From the NCBI RefSeq assembly GCF_055900595.2, contig NZ_CM148325.1: a stretch of 64,000 bases of DNA. One strand, given 5' to 3'. Numbering within the stretch: position 1 is the stretch's first letter; the number at the start of each line of letters is the position of its first letter. Both the position numbers and the translations under genes were made by a program. The notes below the pieces were generated by a model, which was given only the letters and a program-made list of their open reading frames with translations, searched no databases and was not told where the DNA came from. Below, in pieces: positions 1-6,057 of this stretch.

Positions 1-149
1 CAAATTTAAAAGAAATTGCGGCAAAGTCAATACTTACAGATACAACGGTTTCAATTCCGATAACTGCCAGTTACTACGTCTACGATACAAATAAAATTAA
101 ATCTGGCGCACTGGAGGCAACCGCATTAATCAACGTGAAATACGACTAA
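1..149 (+). CDS. 3' end of a fimbrial-type protein gene (partial, start lies before the window); C-terminus ...TALINVKYD
   Basis: Open frame from window start to TAA at 147-149; position convergent with rcnB matches the yehA end of the yehDCBA fimbrial operon by synteny (inference). Confidence 0.45.
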   Translation, partial: NLKEIAAKSILTDTTVSIPITASYYVYDTNKIKSGALEATALINVKYD

Positions 150-205
150 TAACAAGCAAGACGAGCAAGTGGCTAATAATAAAAAATAACAAGGTGTCTG
201 CATTT

Positions 206-232
206 CCCCCTCATGATGAGGGGGCTTTTTTT
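206..232 (+). terminator. Rho-independent terminator between convergent fimbrial gene and rcnB
   Basis: Perfect palindrome ccccctcatgatgaggggg (206-224) followed by T-run 226-232. Confidence 0.6.
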
Positions 233-569
233 AGCGATGATAAAAAATCTCACCATCGTAGGCTTTAATGATTTTACCGTCGGTGTCGCTGATCAACACA
301 TACGCGCCACCCATATAGGTCCAGTGCGTCCCGGCATCAGGCGCGGGCAGGTTACGTAACTGCCACTGCTTAATGTTGTACTCATCGGTGCGGTACATCT
401 CTGGGACGGTATCGCCTGGTTTGAAATGCTTAAAGTCAGCAATGAAACTGCTTAACTCATACTTAGAAATTCCCGAGGTATTGGTCGAACCCGCGGTGGC
501 TGGTGCGGCCCAGGCGGCACTGGTAACCAGCAAAAGCGCACCCAGCAACATCTTATTTTTAATGGTCAT
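231..569 (-). CDS. rcnB: RcnB, periplasmic protein modulating Ni/Co efflux (112 aa)
   Basis: Internal ATG of ORF 231..749; product MTIKNKMLLGALLLVTSAAWA... has a signal peptide and matches recalled RcnB (YohN); sits immediately downstream of rcnA. Confidence 0.85.
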   Translation of the reverse strand: MTIKNKMLLGALLLVTSAAWAAPATAGSTNTSGISKYELSSFIADFKHFKPGDTVPEMYRTDEYNIKQWQLRNLPAPDAGTHWTYMGGAYVLISDTDGKIIKAYDGEIFYHR

Positions 570-773
570 ATACTCTCCACTTTGGGGATCTGTAATATCA
601 GTCGCATATCTTTCCTGCCATACAATATAACTGACAAGCGATATTTTGTTAGTGATCCCATGATTTCGTAAAAAGTGTAAATGAAAGGATGCCCTAAAAG
701 CATCCTTAGCGAGCAGAGAGCCAGCGGAAATAGCTGATTTAAGAATCATCCTGGGCTGAAGATAACATGCAGC

Positions 774-1595
774 CTATCGCATAATGCCCATAAAGCCATG
801 CACGCCCATATACACCCCAACTAAGCCAATCAACAGACTGGAAAAATAGGGGGCACGTTTAGCGAGAGTGTTAAATCCGCTCCAGCGTTTTGCGACCTGC
901 TGAACGCTGATTGCTGCGCCAACGCCTACGGTGACTAGCGTTAACGCCAGGCCAATGCTGAAACTGACGACCAGTGTTGCGCCTAGTGTCAGGGCTTTCA
1001 ACTGAATACAAATCAACAGCACGGTAATTGCTGCCGGGCAGGGGATCAGTCCACCTGTTAACCCAAACAATAAAATTTGCCAGTTGGTCACTTCTCTGCC
1101 ATTGAAGCGTCGTTTGATGTCATTGGCATGGGCTCGTGCATGAGCATCCTGATACTCCCCATGTTCGTGATGGTGATGATGTCCATGGTCGTGGTGATCT
1201 TCGTGATCGTGATGATACTCATGATCATGCCCGTGCATATTCTCCAGCCAGTTACGTTCGCCGCGCCAGGTACGCCAGAACATCCAGAACGCGGTGCCAA
1301 TAATGATCACCGCGGAAATCAACTGGAGCCACGGTTCTGCAGATTGAGCAGTAAAACGTTTGCTGATCACCATCCCGCCAAAGGCAATCAACCAGACCAC
1401 CGCGGTATGCGAAATGGTTGCTGCCAGTCCGAGCATCACCGCCTGTTTAATGGTGCCTTTGATGGCGATGATAAACGCCGCCATCATCGTTTTTGAGTGC
1501 CCTGGTTCCAGGCCATGAAGCGCACCAAGTAAGATGGCGCTGGGAATGAAGAACCAGGCGTTTCCTTGCTGAAGAAGAGTGGTAAATTCAGTCAT
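774..1595 (-). CDS. rcnA: RcnA nickel/cobalt efflux permease with His-rich loop
   Basis: 273-aa membrane protein with loop HGHDHEYHHDHEDHHDHGHHHHHEHG; divergent from rcnR. Confidence 0.93.
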   Translation of the reverse strand: MTEFTTLLQQGNAWFFIPSAILLGALHGLEPGHSKTMMAAFIIAIKGTIKQAVMLGLAATISHTAVVWLIAFGGMVISKRFTAQSAEPWLQLISAVIIIGTAFWMFWRTWRGERNWLENMHGHDHEYHHDHEDHHDHGHHHHHEHGEYQDAHARAHANDIKRRFNGREVTNWQILLFGLTGGLIPCPAAITVLLICIQLKALTLGATLVVSFSIGLALTLVTVGVGAAISVQQVAKRWSGFNTLAKRAPYFSSLLIGLVGVYMGVHGFMGIMR

Positions 1596-1632
1596 GATAA
1601 TAATTCTTAGTATTAATTCGACAATCTGATTC

Positions 1633-1667
1633 TACTCCCCCCCAGTACATGATACTACCCCCCAGTA
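1633..1667. promoter_or_regulatory. RcnR operator: two TACT-C6/7-AGTA sites in the rcnR-rcnA divergent promoter region
   Basis: tactcccccccagta at 1633-1647 and tactaccccccagta at 1653-1667; matches the known RcnR recognition pattern TACT-G6-N-AGTA read on the other strand. Confidence 0.8.
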
Positions 1668-1715
1668 GATTAATAGTGCTATGATTTTTCATGTTCTTGT
1701 TAACCAGGTGTTGCC

Positions 1716-1988
1716 ATGTCTCATACAATCCGTGATAAACAGAAACTGAAAGCGCGTGCCAGTAAGATTCAGGGCCAGGTCGTGGCGCTCAAGAAAATGC
1801 TCGACGAGCCGCACGAATGCGCAGCTGTTCTACAACAGATTGCTGCTATCCGTGGCGCGGTAAACGGCCTGATGCGCGAAGTGATTAAGGGGCATCTGAC
1901 GGAACACATCGTTCACCAGGGGGATGAGCTAAAACGTGAAGAAGATCTGGATGTCGTTCTGAAGGTGCTGGATTCTTATATCAAATGA
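1716..1988 (+). CDS. rcnR: RcnR, Ni/Co-responsive transcriptional repressor (CsoR/RcnR family, 90 aa)
   Basis: 90-aa [32 protein letters not shown]...; divergent from rcnA. Confidence 0.93.
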
Positions 1989-2058
1989 AAGTGCCTAATA
2001 TGGCCGTAGTTGAGGCAATAAATAGAGGGACAAGTGACGTTAAGCTGAATTAGAGTAA

Positions 2059-2082
2059 ATGGCGTGAGGACACACGCCATTC
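2059..2082. terminator. Hairpin (9-bp perfect stem aatggcgtg/cacgccatt) between rcnR and the island ORFs; possible bidirectional terminator
   Basis: Inverted repeat read directly from sequence; flanking T/A-rich tracts. Confidence 0.4.
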
Positions 2083-2097
2083 GAGGATATAGTTTGA

Positions 2098-2412
2098 TTA
2101 ATTTTCGAAAAATTGCTTCACAGCCCAGCCACCATGACCACCTGGAGTTATGAATGAAACAAAACCTTTGTCATCGACGCTCTGGATTTCTACTGTCATT
2201 GATTCATCTAACACGCGACATTTATTGGATGTAATGAGACTCAGCATAGCCTGTTGGTCATTGTCCTGAATGTAACTGATCATCTCGTAAAAGTCAGTTA
2301 ACTTTTTACAGTTAAATGTACCTTCTTTAAGTGTTGCGCTGTCTCCGTGACTTAGTGCGAATGCATTTGGCATCATTGCCACAAAGATGACGGTAACGAG
2401 TAGTTTTTTCAT
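2098..2412 (-). CDS. Hypothetical small secreted protein (104 aa, N-terminal signal peptide, 2 Cys in mature part)
   Basis: ORF MKKLLVTVIFVAMMPNAFALSHG...; AT-rich context; no recognised family. Confidence 0.6.
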   Translation of the reverse strand: MKKLLVTVIFVAMMPNAFALSHGDSATLKEGTFNCKKLTDFYEMISYIQDNDQQAMLSLITSNKCRVLDESMTVEIQSVDDKGFVSFITPGGHGGWAVKQFFEN

Positions 2413-2421
2413 TGTAGCCTC

Positions 2422-2769
2422 TTATAATTCAGAACATTCACTGATGTTGTAAGTGCCTTTTCTACCATCATCGTTTACGAGATGTAGCACGAAGATGATG
2501 GGATTGGCATCAATGAAAGATACAGAGACGTTCCCGCTTTCGGTGCTATACATCTTTGCAATCTGTTTTTCACCAATATATGAAAGATCCCAACTCACTC
2601 CGTTCAAGCTAAAATGCATCTGTTTGCCGTCAATATCGATGGAGGATTGTGCCGTAACGGTTTTCCCATTGCTGCCAATTTGACCCTGCTGAAGAGCATC
2701 ACATTTATAGGAGCTTGCATAAGTAAATAGAGGTAGTAGCAGAAGTGCAGCAAAAATTTTACTCTTCAT
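2422..2769 (-). CDS. Hypothetical small secreted protein (115 aa, signal peptide, 2 Cys)
   Basis: ORF MKSKIFAALLLLPLFTYASSYKC...; 10 bp upstream of the 104-aa ORF, likely co-transcribed. Confidence 0.6.
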   Translation of the reverse strand: MKSKIFAALLLLPLFTYASSYKCDALQQGQIGSNGKTVTAQSSIDIDGKQMHFSLNGVSWDLSYIGEKQIAKMYSTESGNVSVSFIDANPIIFVLHLVNDDGRKGTYNISECSEL

Positions 2770-3137
2770 ATTTTCCCTTTGCTTGGATTTGAGTTACCTA
2801 TTTTGGGGTAGTCATTATAAAACTATTAATTAGTAAAATGAACAAGTTTTCATTTGTTTAGTAATGGTATTGTTTAGGTTTGAAATTATTACGTACTTTC
2901 ATAGCAATAGGTTGGATAAACAGCAGTTCAGGGAACAAGTTGCACTATCTACATACTTTCCCGCTTTCCATTGTATGTTAGGTAATAGATAGCCTTTGCC
3001 CGTAAGACTAAAAATATTAGAAATGACTCATTCGAATACCTTCTATTCACCTTAATATAGGTTTGATTATTGTAATCGTTTAATGTGTCTTATGGATTTT
3101 TTCCTACTTTTCATTTGCATAATATAGGGGGCACAGC

Positions 3138-3257
3138 ATGCTCTTGAAATTAATTATTAAGATATTTAAATTTTACAGCACACAACTACTTTTCGTTGTC
3201 TTATGTGTTGAACGTACTTCGAGTATAGGTAGGGTTGTATATATATTGCGTGGGTAG
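3138..3257 (+). CDS. Candidate small hydrophobic peptide (39 aa, MLLKLIIKIFKFYSTQLLFVVLCVERTSSIGRVVYILRG)
   Basis: ATG preceded by aggggg about 8 nt upstream; very short, so coding status is uncertain. Confidence 0.2.
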   Translation: MLLKLIIKIFKFYSTQLLFVVLCVERTSSIGRVVYILRG

Positions 3258-3354
3258 AGTTAGAATAGAGGAGGCATCATTTATAGAATATTCAAGAACG
3301 TTAACCTGTGATCAATAAATAAAAATATCAAATGGTGTTCAAACATATTTTTCT

Positions 3355-3686
3355 ATGAAAAATCCAGCCATCTATGATGAATTTTTAGATCCATTTTAAT
3401 TAAAGTATGATTATGAACCAATATTTAGCCAAGAATGGTGGTATAGCGCGTATCCAATGACACCGGAAAACGCATCTATGAAGTCCTTGTTTATCTCTAT
3501 AAGAGGAAATCAACACTAATAAAATATAGTGATGTAACACATCGAGCAGGTTGCTCTGATGCTGGTCTTCAACTGTGGCTTAAACAGCTATCAAACTTCG
3601 GTGTTATTGAGATGAAAGAATTATCTTTCTCAACTTTCAATCTCAAAAAGCTAGAGGAAATAGACCTTAATTATTCCACTCTCTAA
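3355..3686 (+). pseudogene. Possible degraded gene: three consecutive +1-shifted open frames (MKNPAIYDEFLDPF / MIMNQYLAKNGGIARIQ / ...KRIYEVLVYLYKRKSTLIKYSDVTHRAGCSDAGLQLWLKQLSNFGVIEMKELSFSTFNLKKLEEIDLNYSTL)
   Basis: An ~80-codon stop-free frame in ~30% GC DNA lacking an ATG near its 5' end, preceded by two short ATG-initiated frames. Confidence 0.25.
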
Positions 3687-3822
3687 ACTTATCTCTTTAT
3701 TTAAAGTAAAAATGAAAATATTATGGTATCAGCTACGTGGTGGTAACTGGTGTTTATGATCATAGGTACACATATACAGGGAACCCTGGAAAACAAAAGT
3801 AATATATTGATGATTTCGTTTG

Positions 3823-4062
3823 TTATAACTTCGTGGTATCAAGTCCGGCGGCTTTGAGTCGCTCGGTAAGATTTCTCATTTTGCTGAACTCTGTACCAAA
3901 GCTGGCTTTAAGTCCTACACCTTCGCAAAACTCTTTTGCCGTGACGTTTTTAAGATGGTCAGCGTATTTGATCATCTGGAGGTGCATTTCCATCGTTTGG
4001 CTATTTCGTGGTGCGCTGCTAATGGCTTGCTTAATGTTCTCGTAGATCTGGGTTTCTGTCAT
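3823..4062 (-). CDS. Hypothetical protein (79 aa), family not recognised
   Basis: ORF MTETQIYENIKQAISSAPRNSQTMEMHLQMIKYADHLKNVTAKEF...; in AT-rich island. Confidence 0.5.
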   Translation of the reverse strand: MTETQIYENIKQAISSAPRNSQTMEMHLQMIKYADHLKNVTAKEFCEGVGLKASFGTEFSKMRNLTERLKAAGLDTTKL

Positions 4063-4282
4063 TTTTTATCTCACCTATCAAATTTAGATAAATAATATAA
4101 ATTAGATAAATAAGATAATCAATAGTTTTTACCATATGAATAATGGATGTGGATTGTTTCTTTTTCATTTCTGATATGGAGTACAAAATGGGGTCACAAT
4201 GAAGAAGCGATGAATGGAGGCGAGCTTGCATCTGCAAGCCTCTTCCCCTAATCTGGCACAAAATATAGAGATTCAACCAAAC

Positions 4283-4400
4283 GACTCGGGGTGCCCTTCT
4301 GCGTGAAGGCTGAGAAATACCCGTATCACCTGATCTGGATAATGCCAGCGTAGGGAAGTCACGGACCACCAGGTCATTGCTTCTTCACGTTATGGCAGGA
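4283..4400 (+). promoter_or_regulatory. TPP (THI-box) riboswitch in the thiM 5' leader
   Basis: Sequence ggggtgcccttctgcgtgaaggctgagaaatacccgtatcacctgatctggataatgccagcgtagggaa matches the classic thiM thiamine-pyrophosphate aptamer; directly upstream of thiM start. Confidence 0.92.
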
Positions 4401-4407
4401 GCAAACT

Positions 4408-5196
4408 ATGCAAGTCGACCTGCTGAGTTCCGCGCAATCTGCGCACGCGTTACACCTTTTTCACCAACATTCCCCTCTTGTGCATTGCATGACCAATGAT
4501 GTGGTGCAAACCTTTACTGCCAATACCTTGCTGGCGCTCGGTGCATCGCCAGCGATGGTTATCGAAACCGAAGAAGCCAGTCAGTTTGCGGCTATCGCCA
4601 GTGCCTTGCTAATTAACGTCGGCACGCTGACGCAGCCACGCGCACAGGCGATGCGTGCTGCCGTTGAACAGGCAACACACTCTCAAACCCCCTGGACGCT
4701 TGATCCGGTCGCGGTTGGCGCACTCGATTATCGTCGCCGTTTTTGTCATGAACTTTTATCTTTTAAACCGGCAGCGATACGTGGTAATGCTTCGGAAATC
4801 ATGGCATTAGCTGGCGTTGCTAATGGTGGACGGGGAGTGGACACCACTGACGCCGCAGCTAATGCGATACCCGCTGCACAAACACTGGCACGGGAAACTG
4901 GCGCAATCGTCGTGGTCACAGGCGAGGTGGATTATGTTACCGATGGTCGTCGCACCGTTGGCATTCACGGCGGCAATCCGTTAATGACCAAAGTGGTAGG
5001 AACTGGCTGTGCATTATCGGCAGTTGTCGCTGCCTGTTGTGCATTACCTGGCGATATGCTGGAAAATATCGCATCTGCCTGTCACTGGATGAAACAAGCC
5101 GGAGAACGCGCCGTCGCCAGAAGTGAAGGGCCTGGCAGTTTTGTTCCCCATTTTCTTGATGCGCTCTGGCAATTGACGCAGGAGGTGCAGGCGTGA
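4408..5196 (+). CDS. thiM: Hydroxyethylthiazole kinase
   Basis: 262-aa ORF; downstream of TPP riboswitch; overlaps thiD start. Confidence 0.95.
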
Positions 5197-5993
5197 AACG
5201 AATTAACGCTCTGACAATTGCAGGCACTGATCCCAGTGGTGGCGCAGGAATTCAGGCAGATCTCAAAACGTTCTCGGCACTTGGCGCTTATGGTTGCTCA
5301 GTGATTACTGCACTGGTGGCGCAAAATACCCGTGGCGTACAGTCGGTGTATCGCATTGAGCCTGATTTTGTCGCCGCCCAGCTCGATTCGGTGTTCAGCG
5401 ATGTGCGAATCGATACCACTAAAATCGGTATGTTGGCGGAAACTGATATTGTTGAAGCGGTGGCAGAACGGTTGCAACGTTATCAGATCCAAAACGTGGT
5501 GCTCGACACCGTTATGCTGGCAAAAAGCGGCGACCCGCTGCTTTCACCTTCGGCGGTTGCTACGCTGCGCAGTCGATTATTGCCACAGGTTTCATTAATA
5601 ACGCCAAACTTGCCCGAAGCAGCCGCCTTGCTCGACGCGCCACACGCGCGCAACGAACAGGAAATGCTGGAACAAGGGCGATCGCTGTTGGCGATGGGCT
5701 GTGGCGCAGTGCTAATGAAAGGTGGTCATCTGGATGATGAGCAAAGCCCGGACTGGCTGTTTACCCGCGAGGGTGAACAACGGTTTACCGCACCGCGCAT
5801 TATGACCCAAAACACCCACGGCACTGGTTGTACGCTCTCTGCGGCGTTGGCTGCACTGCGCCCGCGCCATACAAACTGGGCTGACACCGTACAGGAGGCA
5901 AAAAGCTGGCTTTCATCGGCATTAGCCCAGGCCGACACGCTGGAAGTTGGTCACGGTATTGGTCCGGTTCACCACTTCCACGCCTGGTGGTGA
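5193..5993 (+). CDS. thiD: Hydroxymethylpyrimidine/phosphomethylpyrimidine kinase (GTG start overlapping thiM stop)
   Basis: 266-aa [29 protein letters not shown]... Confidence 0.95.
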
Positions 5994-6057
5994 GCACCGT
6001 ACTATAGCTGCTTTGGTTATTGTCAGTCTTTGGCGCTGACATTCAGGGATGAAACCA

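Follow-up and report, generated by a model that had tools for sequence, protein, structure and literature searches.

A probable non-functional relic of a mobile element, consisting of a rep tail and a frameshifted small gene, beside thiM in Escherichia coli

The window (64,000 nucleotides of contig NZ_CM148325.1, RefSeq assembly GCF_055900595.2) is Escherichia coli chromosome: rcnBA-rcnR, an AT-rich island whose start directly adjoins the rcnR stop codon, and the TPP riboswitch with thiMD. Here, we report the features of the island and a follow-up of three open frames within it. The locus is laid out as follows.

231-749, minus strand: rcnB
774-1595, minus strand: rcnA
1716-1988, plus strand: rcnR
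about 1989-4273: AT-rich island
2098-2412, minus strand: 'outer membrane protein' gene (PGAP), intact, small, secreted
2422-2769, minus strand: hypothetical gene (PGAP), intact, small, secreted
3823-4062, minus strand: HTH_73 (PF24718) gene, intact, 79 amino acids (PGAP; Pfam E = 6.5e-31)
4277-4373: TPP riboswitch (Rfam)
4408-5196: thiM, followed by thiD and yegXWVU

PGAP annotated only three genes in the island (2098-2412, 2422-2769, and 3823-4062) and called nothing within 2770-3822. The complete island was found in 339 of 5426 complete E. coli genomes, with 100% identity to the window in Z0117EC0005 and 97.4% in O157:H7; in most other genomes (K-12-like), homology to the window begins only at 4274. 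The minus-strand pair at 2098-2769 encodes proteins of 104 and 115 amino acids, with signal-peptide-like N-termini and without a Pfam family, and is the best-conserved part of the island (0.6-0.95% divergence versus O157). Both of these secreted-protein genes recur in a complete thiM-site element of strain PEC389 (76% DNA identity), and the 115-amino-acid protein of the window has about 40% amino acid identity to a protein of the corresponding element in strain HB42 (tblastx).

The three frames lie in the tract left blank by PGAP (frame number, position mod 3).

3355-3399, plus strand: frame 1, ATG at 3355 to TAA at 3397-3399, 'MKNPAIYDEFLDPF*'
3413-3460, plus strand: frame 2, ATG at 3413 to TGA at 3458-3460, 'MNQYLAKNGGIARIQ*'
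3447-3686, plus strand: frame 0, 79 stop-free codons (3447-3683) and TAA at 3684-3686

An initial annotation had described three consecutive frames, each shifted +1 on the previous one, and the coordinates agree exactly. Its argument that stops should be frequent in such DNA is statistically insufficient: the region has a GC content of about 0.33, and among 2000 dinucleotide-preserving shuffles, with any of six frames counted, a stop-free run of at least 79 codons arose in 23% for the unannotated 2770-3822 and in 9% for 3262-3760 (shuffle P, 0.09-0.23). The length of frame 0 alone is within chance and would not justify a gene claim; an open frame of some 80 codons in DNA of about 33% GC is, by itself, no evidence of a gene. 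These shuffles and the PGAP blank speak for a chance product of AT-rich DNA in which no gene was ever present, a reading against which stand 70 to 76% amino acid identity to an intact, selected family, tblastx matches of E = 1e-58 (HB42) and 4e-46 (locus L008) to the intact genes, syntenic neighbors, and a dS (0.56-1.0) far above dN (0.11-0.12) relative to intact copies. A chance open frame was ruled out by the homology results and has next to no probability. It is because of this homology to intact genes, not run length, that we treat the feature as non-random.

HB42 carries, at the same site, a 7.7-kb element encoding a Rep protein of 239 amino acids and a small gene of 81 codons, in the order and orientation seen in the window (Rep, small gene, HTH_73 gene, riboswitch, thiM) and with 88% DNA identity over window positions 3381-4450. 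In both HB42 and a second strain, E32, the intact pair comprises a gene for 239 to 244 amino acids, an 11-nt gap, and a gene for 81 to 92 amino acids. Aligned with these relatives, the three frames resolve into the following features.

3262-3399, plus strand: rep 3' remnant, about 45 codons (HTH_36, lambda-O/DnaD-like replication initiator)
3400-3412, plus strand: intergenic spacer, 2 nt longer than in intact copies (HB42 and E32 alignment)
3413-3460, plus strand: 5' part of the small pseudogene, ATG, 15 codons, and a premature TGA at 3458-3460
3447-3686, plus strand: 3' part of the pseudogene, 79 stop-free codons and TAA, in the +1 frame

The first frame (3355-3399) is the last 14 codons of the rep remnant, which is itself interrupted by an in-frame TAA (3316-3318). 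E32 matches window positions 3262-3755 at 74% identity (blastn), and 3274-3399 matches the Rep C-terminus of L008 at 43% identity over 42 amino acids, with a common ...DxPF* end (tblastx). Intact Rep matches Pfam HTH_36 and PHROG replication-initiation families (O-like and DnaD-like); PHROGs 270, 186, 345, and 391, which hold lambda-O-like/DnaD-like initiators of phages and satellites, were matched by this upstream gene of the intact relatives, whereas the window keeps only about 45 C-terminal codons of such a protein. A small accessory gene after the initiator is seen in many phage replication modules, as in the intact relatives; the small partner, however, is not recognizable as lambda P, a DnaC-type loader, or any other Pfam/PHROG family. 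In the window spacer, the Shine-Dalgarno sequence of the intact copies, AAGGAGG, has become AAAGTATG. The change from frame 1 to frame 2 is the natural boundary of two genes, not a frameshift; at this point, a stop, a Shine-Dalgarno sequence, and an ATG are present in intact relatives.

The change from frame 2 to frame 0 lies inside the second gene. In all intact homologues, down to 41% identity, 16 codons precede an invariant N-D-x-G-K; in the window, 15 codons and one further nucleotide lead into the TGA at 3458, and the distance from ATG to DTGK is 46 nt versus 48 nt in every intact member. The frame break falls within roughly 3434-3460, outside any homopolymer, and leaves the gene a net 2 nt shorter than its intact counterparts (as exact indels, +1 and -3, or +3 and -5). 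Frame 0 is closed upstream by a TAG (3444-3446) and has no ATG, GTG, or TTG until the internal Met of IEMKEL, 24 codons from its end. Its product has 70 to 76% amino acid identity to residues 16-92 of the intact 92-amino-acid protein (tblastx), the 15 N-terminal codons in frame 2 also align to the intact family, and in the comparison that had been proposed as a check, the intact homologue aligns over the junction between the two frames. The pseudogene stands directly 3' of the rep remnant (with rep ending at 3399 and the ATG following at 3413), its usual position in the family. It has neither an uninterrupted ORF with 16 codons before N-D-x-G-K nor a Shine-Dalgarno sequence, its copies of the family-invariant I2 and F55 are replaced, and it cannot form the N-terminal hairpin of the intact protein. 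In some assemblies, the O157 copy is annotated by NCBI as a 'partial' hypothetical protein (P0022), and the intact protein matches this remnant at E = 6e-26. By alignment with the intact copies, frames 2 and 0 read as one small gene with one frame break and a lost ribosome-binding site. Of the earlier claim of a gene inactivated by frameshifts, decay and an inactivating frameshift stand, and two frameshifts in one gene do not, as there is only one break.

The broken form occurs in 339 of 5426 genomes, without annotation under it; the same search found intact annotated copies at 60 to 80% identity in 419 genomes and no intact close ancestor at 80 to 95% identity. Six haplotypes were read (the window, O157:H7 FRIK2533, FDAARGOS_946, LR-28, GDSC2227PM, and XJ34), and all have the lesion with an identical frame structure, differing by substitutions only, with no indels. 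As the lesion is identical in all six, it is old and not a sequencing error. The competing view, in which an intact gene only looks broken through faulty sequencing or assembly, draws on the frequency of single-base indels among assembly errors; it runs against six independently assembled complete genomes (including O157:H7) with the same frame structure, a lesion of net -2 nt outside a homopolymer, the loss of the Shine-Dalgarno sequence as well, and an omega of about 1. With the lesion shared by six assemblies, sequencing error was rejected, and its probability is negligible.

Among intact copies, dN/dS is 0.04 to 0.12 (Nei-Gojobori), and these copies are a real, constrained gene family; between the window and the intact copies, it is 0.11 to 0.25 (dS, 0.56-1.0; dN, 0.11-0.12). 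Polymorphisms within the broken clade are 7 nonsynonymous and 2 synonymous; over these nine sites in six haplotypes, the counts are compatible with omega = 1 (P = 0.67) but not with omega <= 0.12 (P = 0.004), and the purifying selection of the small winged-helix family was not found in this clade. Between the window and O157, the pseudogene has diverged by 2.9%, the three annotated island genes by 0.6 to 0.95%, and adjacent non-coding DNA by 1.4 to 3.0%.

Expression could in principle continue through a programmed, prfB-like +1 frameshift at CAA-TGA-C or as a functional truncated product: frame 0 picks up with DTGK right at the TGA of frame 2, the ...RIQ of the intact copies is still present in frame 2, and frame 0 is open in all haplotypes. 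There is, however, no slippery codon, since CAA cannot re-pair on AAU (ATC-CAA-TGA-C), and no upstream Shine-Dalgarno-like stimulator; the gene's own Shine-Dalgarno sequence is lost, intact homologues are all single-frame, the polymorphism is neutral, invariant I2 and F55 are replaced, the partner gene Rep is gone, and an open frame this long is unsurprising by chance. We regard expression of this kind as highly improbable. Programmed frameshifting was rejected, as a shift-prone P-site codon, a Shine-Dalgarno-like stimulator, and a conserved frameshift, all characteristic of the prfB type, were not found.

A slightly better, still small, chance attaches to retention of the DNA for a non-coding role, as the 3' region or terminator of the HTH_73 gene, an H-NS-bound silencing tract, or a small RNA. 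The region is AT-rich, and the pseudogene converges on the intact HTH_73 gene and is kept in 339 genomes. Against such a role, it gave no Rfam hit at E <= 1, it contains no terminator-like site and fewer promoter-like sites than shuffles, and its divergence is as high as that of flanking non-coding DNA. The Rfam search (E <= 1; window positions 1-6000 and the HB42 and E32 loci) returned only the TPP riboswitch, a sub-threshold Hrs1, and a spurious tmRNA, and the site scan of 2700-4420 gave promoter-like sites in numbers below those in shuffles and zero terminator-like sites, an outcome with little information in it. The stretch is, very probably, a non-functional relic, with a rep tail and a frameshifted small gene left by a mobile element beside thiM.

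The intact small gene encodes 81 to 94 amino acids in other E. coli elements (type, WP_000617145/WP_000617151). Its product matches no Pfam or PHROG family, and tblastn against 50,697 phage records returned no match. An exhaustive phmmer search of 1.84 billion representatives gave only 13 hits, all of them enterobacterial element copies or fragments except for a 27-residue local match in a 907-amino-acid protein; two distant members (51% and 41% identity) come from other elements. Length varies in the family: the HB42 gene (L002 4032-4277) stops 11 codons early at a TAG (81 versus 92 amino acids), where other copies read on to ...EIDFIYSTL and the window pseudogene has the longer C-terminus as well, and two database members (P0012 and P0024) have internal deletions.

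The intact homologue was modeled with AlphaFold2 (seven-sequence alignment; pLDDT, 91.7; pTM, 0.82) as an N-terminal beta-hairpin, three helices, and a beta wing. The Foldseek matches were the winged helices of CodY-C, ArsR/SmtB, HlyU, TubR, and PapI, with E values no better than 4e-3, and a PDB profile search found ArsR at E = 0.02. TM-scores to these small winged-helix domains (2b0l for the CodY C-terminal domain) are 0.5 to 0.6; identity to them is only 12 to 26%, and the intact homologue differs in its extra N-terminal beta-hairpin. These models support a predicted winged-helix fold for the intact homologue, and the helix-turn-helix guess of the initial annotation is borne out for it at the fold level (pLDDT, 91.7; Foldseek winged helices). 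When the profile of the small protein was compared with that of Rep, the probability was 6%, which is no evidence of paralogy. From its fold and gene position, we infer that the intact 92-amino-acid protein would be a DNA-binding accessory factor or regulator of the replication module.

Intact elements at the thiM site provide the wider context. The HB42 and PEC389 islands both have a TPP aptamer copy on each side and an integrase at the left end, where the tyrosine integrase adjoins the rcnR-side copy; the HB42 element is flanked by an exact 82-bp direct repeat (100% identical). The corresponding features are as follows.

L005 4563-4659 and 12296-12391 (HB42): flanking aptamer copies
2907-2999, plus strand: probable tyrosine-integrase C-terminus relic, 31 codons with an in-frame stop, Box II region ...YLHTFPLS..
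4063-4273, plus strand: right end of the element, now directly upstream of the thiM riboswitch, 95% identity to the HB42 right junction
4274-4355, plus strand: 82-bp attachment repeat, most of the thiM TPP aptamer, two copies in HB42 and one in the window

The integrase relic aligns to residues about 402-432 of the HB42 integrase in the integrase reading frame (58% identity; E = 6e-7; tblastx) and matches at 77% over 53 nt (blastn). Window positions 1-6000 contain a single TPP aptamer (Rfam). With one aptamer copy and the integrase reduced to a 31-codon trace, the island is evidently an eroded remnant, not a member capable of moving. Across 5424 genomes, we counted 5701 TPP aptamer copies, about 277 of them extra, with up to three per genome, and because of these counts the thiM riboswitch is a recurrent attachment site, with tandem insertions likely.

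Known cargo of these elements includes an HNH endonuclease (HB42) and a TIR protein with DUF6998 (PEC389). The E. coli B island at thiM carries the Type IV restriction enzyme EcoBLMcrX (ecoBLmcrX), downstream of ECD_02033, and the gene content of the thiM-adjacent island differs between isolates (Fomenkov et al. 2017, PMC5487053). ECD_02033 (MQMTETQI...GLDTSKL) is homologous to the window HTH_73 gene, a gene of 79 to 81 codons by the riboswitch, and transposon insertions in this homologue lower McrX activity (PMC5487053). The text and supplements of that paper do not contain 'riboswitch' and use 'integrase' only for other loci (PMC5487053). Unlike the E. coli B island, the window has no restriction-enzyme cargo and has Rep and winged-helix relics. 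Downstream genes of the HTH_73 gene vary by strain (DUF6998 in PEC389, L013 12748-13447; McrX in E. coli B). The HTH_73 gene looks like a fixed regulator/promoter gene before a swappable defense slot, which is empty in the window. The small pseudogene itself, proposed initially as ancestral cargo of the island, belongs instead to the replication backbone (60-amino-acid gene, Rep, and small winged-helix gene) of an integrative element.

The gene order of the island is not the expected one: the secreted-protein genes precede the integrase trace, which suggests two tandem elements cut down by at least three deletions. In the HB42 insertion, the native thiM promoter region and one aptamer copy face the integrase, and element DNA precedes thiM. 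The native thiM upstream region is gone entirely in the window, and because it is absent, thiMD would have to be transcribed from the element-derived 4063-4273. This segment is hypervariable versus O157, with 8.5% substitutions and 11 indel columns.

The same Rep and small-gene module occurs in E32, CFIAFB20180540, and 2012C-4606 in an element of roughly 13 kb at tRNA-Thr (thrW), and the pair is also found in two more distant elements. The ~13-kb element (L008 2730-16500; also L009, L004, L010, L011, and L012) lies at thrW, or at yciO-rluB in a more distant host, and encodes an integrase, a Dit-like protein, a 610-amino-acid tape-measure-like protein, a Phage_cap_E capsid protein, the Rep and winged-helix module, several small unknown ORFs, and a small serine recombinase. 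Its capsid protein has only about 24% identity to that of any deposited phage (Pseudomonas phages), and no portal or terminase was recognized in the thrW-type elements.

Phage satellites (PICI, cf-PICI, and P4-like) resemble the intact relatives in being small (8 to 13 kb), integrase-bounded, and equipped with their own replication initiator; a capsid gene is present as well in the thrW version. Satellites are marked by induction and packaging that depend on a helper phage and by hallmark genes (alpA, pri-rep, packaging redirection, or a full capsid module); in the thrW relatives, the genes recognized were only those for the integrase, Rep, the major capsid protein, and the tape-measure-like and Dit-like proteins. 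Unlike these satellites, the elements have no recognized portal, protease, terminase, AlpA, or primase. Literature on thrW satellites, riboswitch integration sites, and thiM defense hotspots yielded no description of them, the E. coli B study of McrX being the one pertinent paper. On its gene content, the ~13-kb thrW element may be an undescribed satellite type.

In the intact elements, an ORF-poor tract of 1.3 to 1.8 kb extends from the serine recombinase to the operon of the 60-amino-acid gene and Rep (L002 [HB42] 1208-2971, L003 about 1000-3073, and L009 6100-8006). It has no annotated gene, a longest stop-free run of 83 codons, and no Rfam hit, yet the elements agree at 91 to 95% identity in this tract versus about 85% in their coding genes. 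Within it lie iteron-like repeats (GGAAGTGGTTTCC...) and a patch of about 200 nt that is GC-rich and partly kept even in the 41%-identity relative (TATTGCGCTGTGCGCAG); RNAalifold on this patch (five sequences only) gave a positive covariation penalty. The tract, which the window lacks, may be a replication origin or encode a non-coding RNA.

Taken with the intact relatives, these observations are consistent with the following history. An integrative element would have inserted into the aptamer of the thiM TPP riboswitch, with a backbone of a tyrosine integrase, a serine recombinase, and a replication module (60-amino-acid gene, O-like Rep, and winged-helix protein) plus variable cargo. The left attachment site, the integrase, the recombinase, and most of rep were later lost by deletion, after which the element could no longer move or replicate. 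The small gene 3' of rep lost its ribosome-binding site and its frame (net -2 nt; TGA at 3458) and has since gathered substitutions neutrally. The three frames are the rep tail, the small gene up to its 15th codon, and its remainder; in intact elements, the 92-amino-acid protein would be a winged-helix factor that binds DNA within the replication or regulatory module.

The feature is a real, ordinary pseudogene, and the family of its parent element is more interesting. A broader proposal, which we offer tentatively and consider rather unlikely as a whole, is that the relic marks undescribed small integrative elements with the thiM aptamer as attB, defense cargo, and a module shared with thrW elements, amounting to a new kind of satellite. 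The proposed family is characterized by the duplication of 82 bp of the aptamer, which gives thiMD new upstream DNA, and by swappable defense cargo (HNH, TIR, DUF6998, and McrX); common to the thiM-site and the 13-kb thrW elements are the 60-amino-acid gene, Rep, the 92-amino-acid winged-helix protein, and an ORF-poor region of 1.3 kb. A new kind of phage satellite is suggested because a capsid protein, a tape-measure-like protein, and a Dit-like protein are encoded but no portal or terminase.

For E. coli, an unannotated gap of 1 kb in 339 complete genomes, including O157:H7, gains a pseudogene, a truncated rep, and an integrase trace, and the AT-rich island is explained as a probable eroded, immobilized mobile element. 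The TPP riboswitch of thiM is a recurrent integration site whose elements bring varied defense genes, and in strains like this one, thiMD would be read from element-derived upstream DNA. If the proposed family is real, the small winged-helix protein would be one of its core regulators or replication factors.
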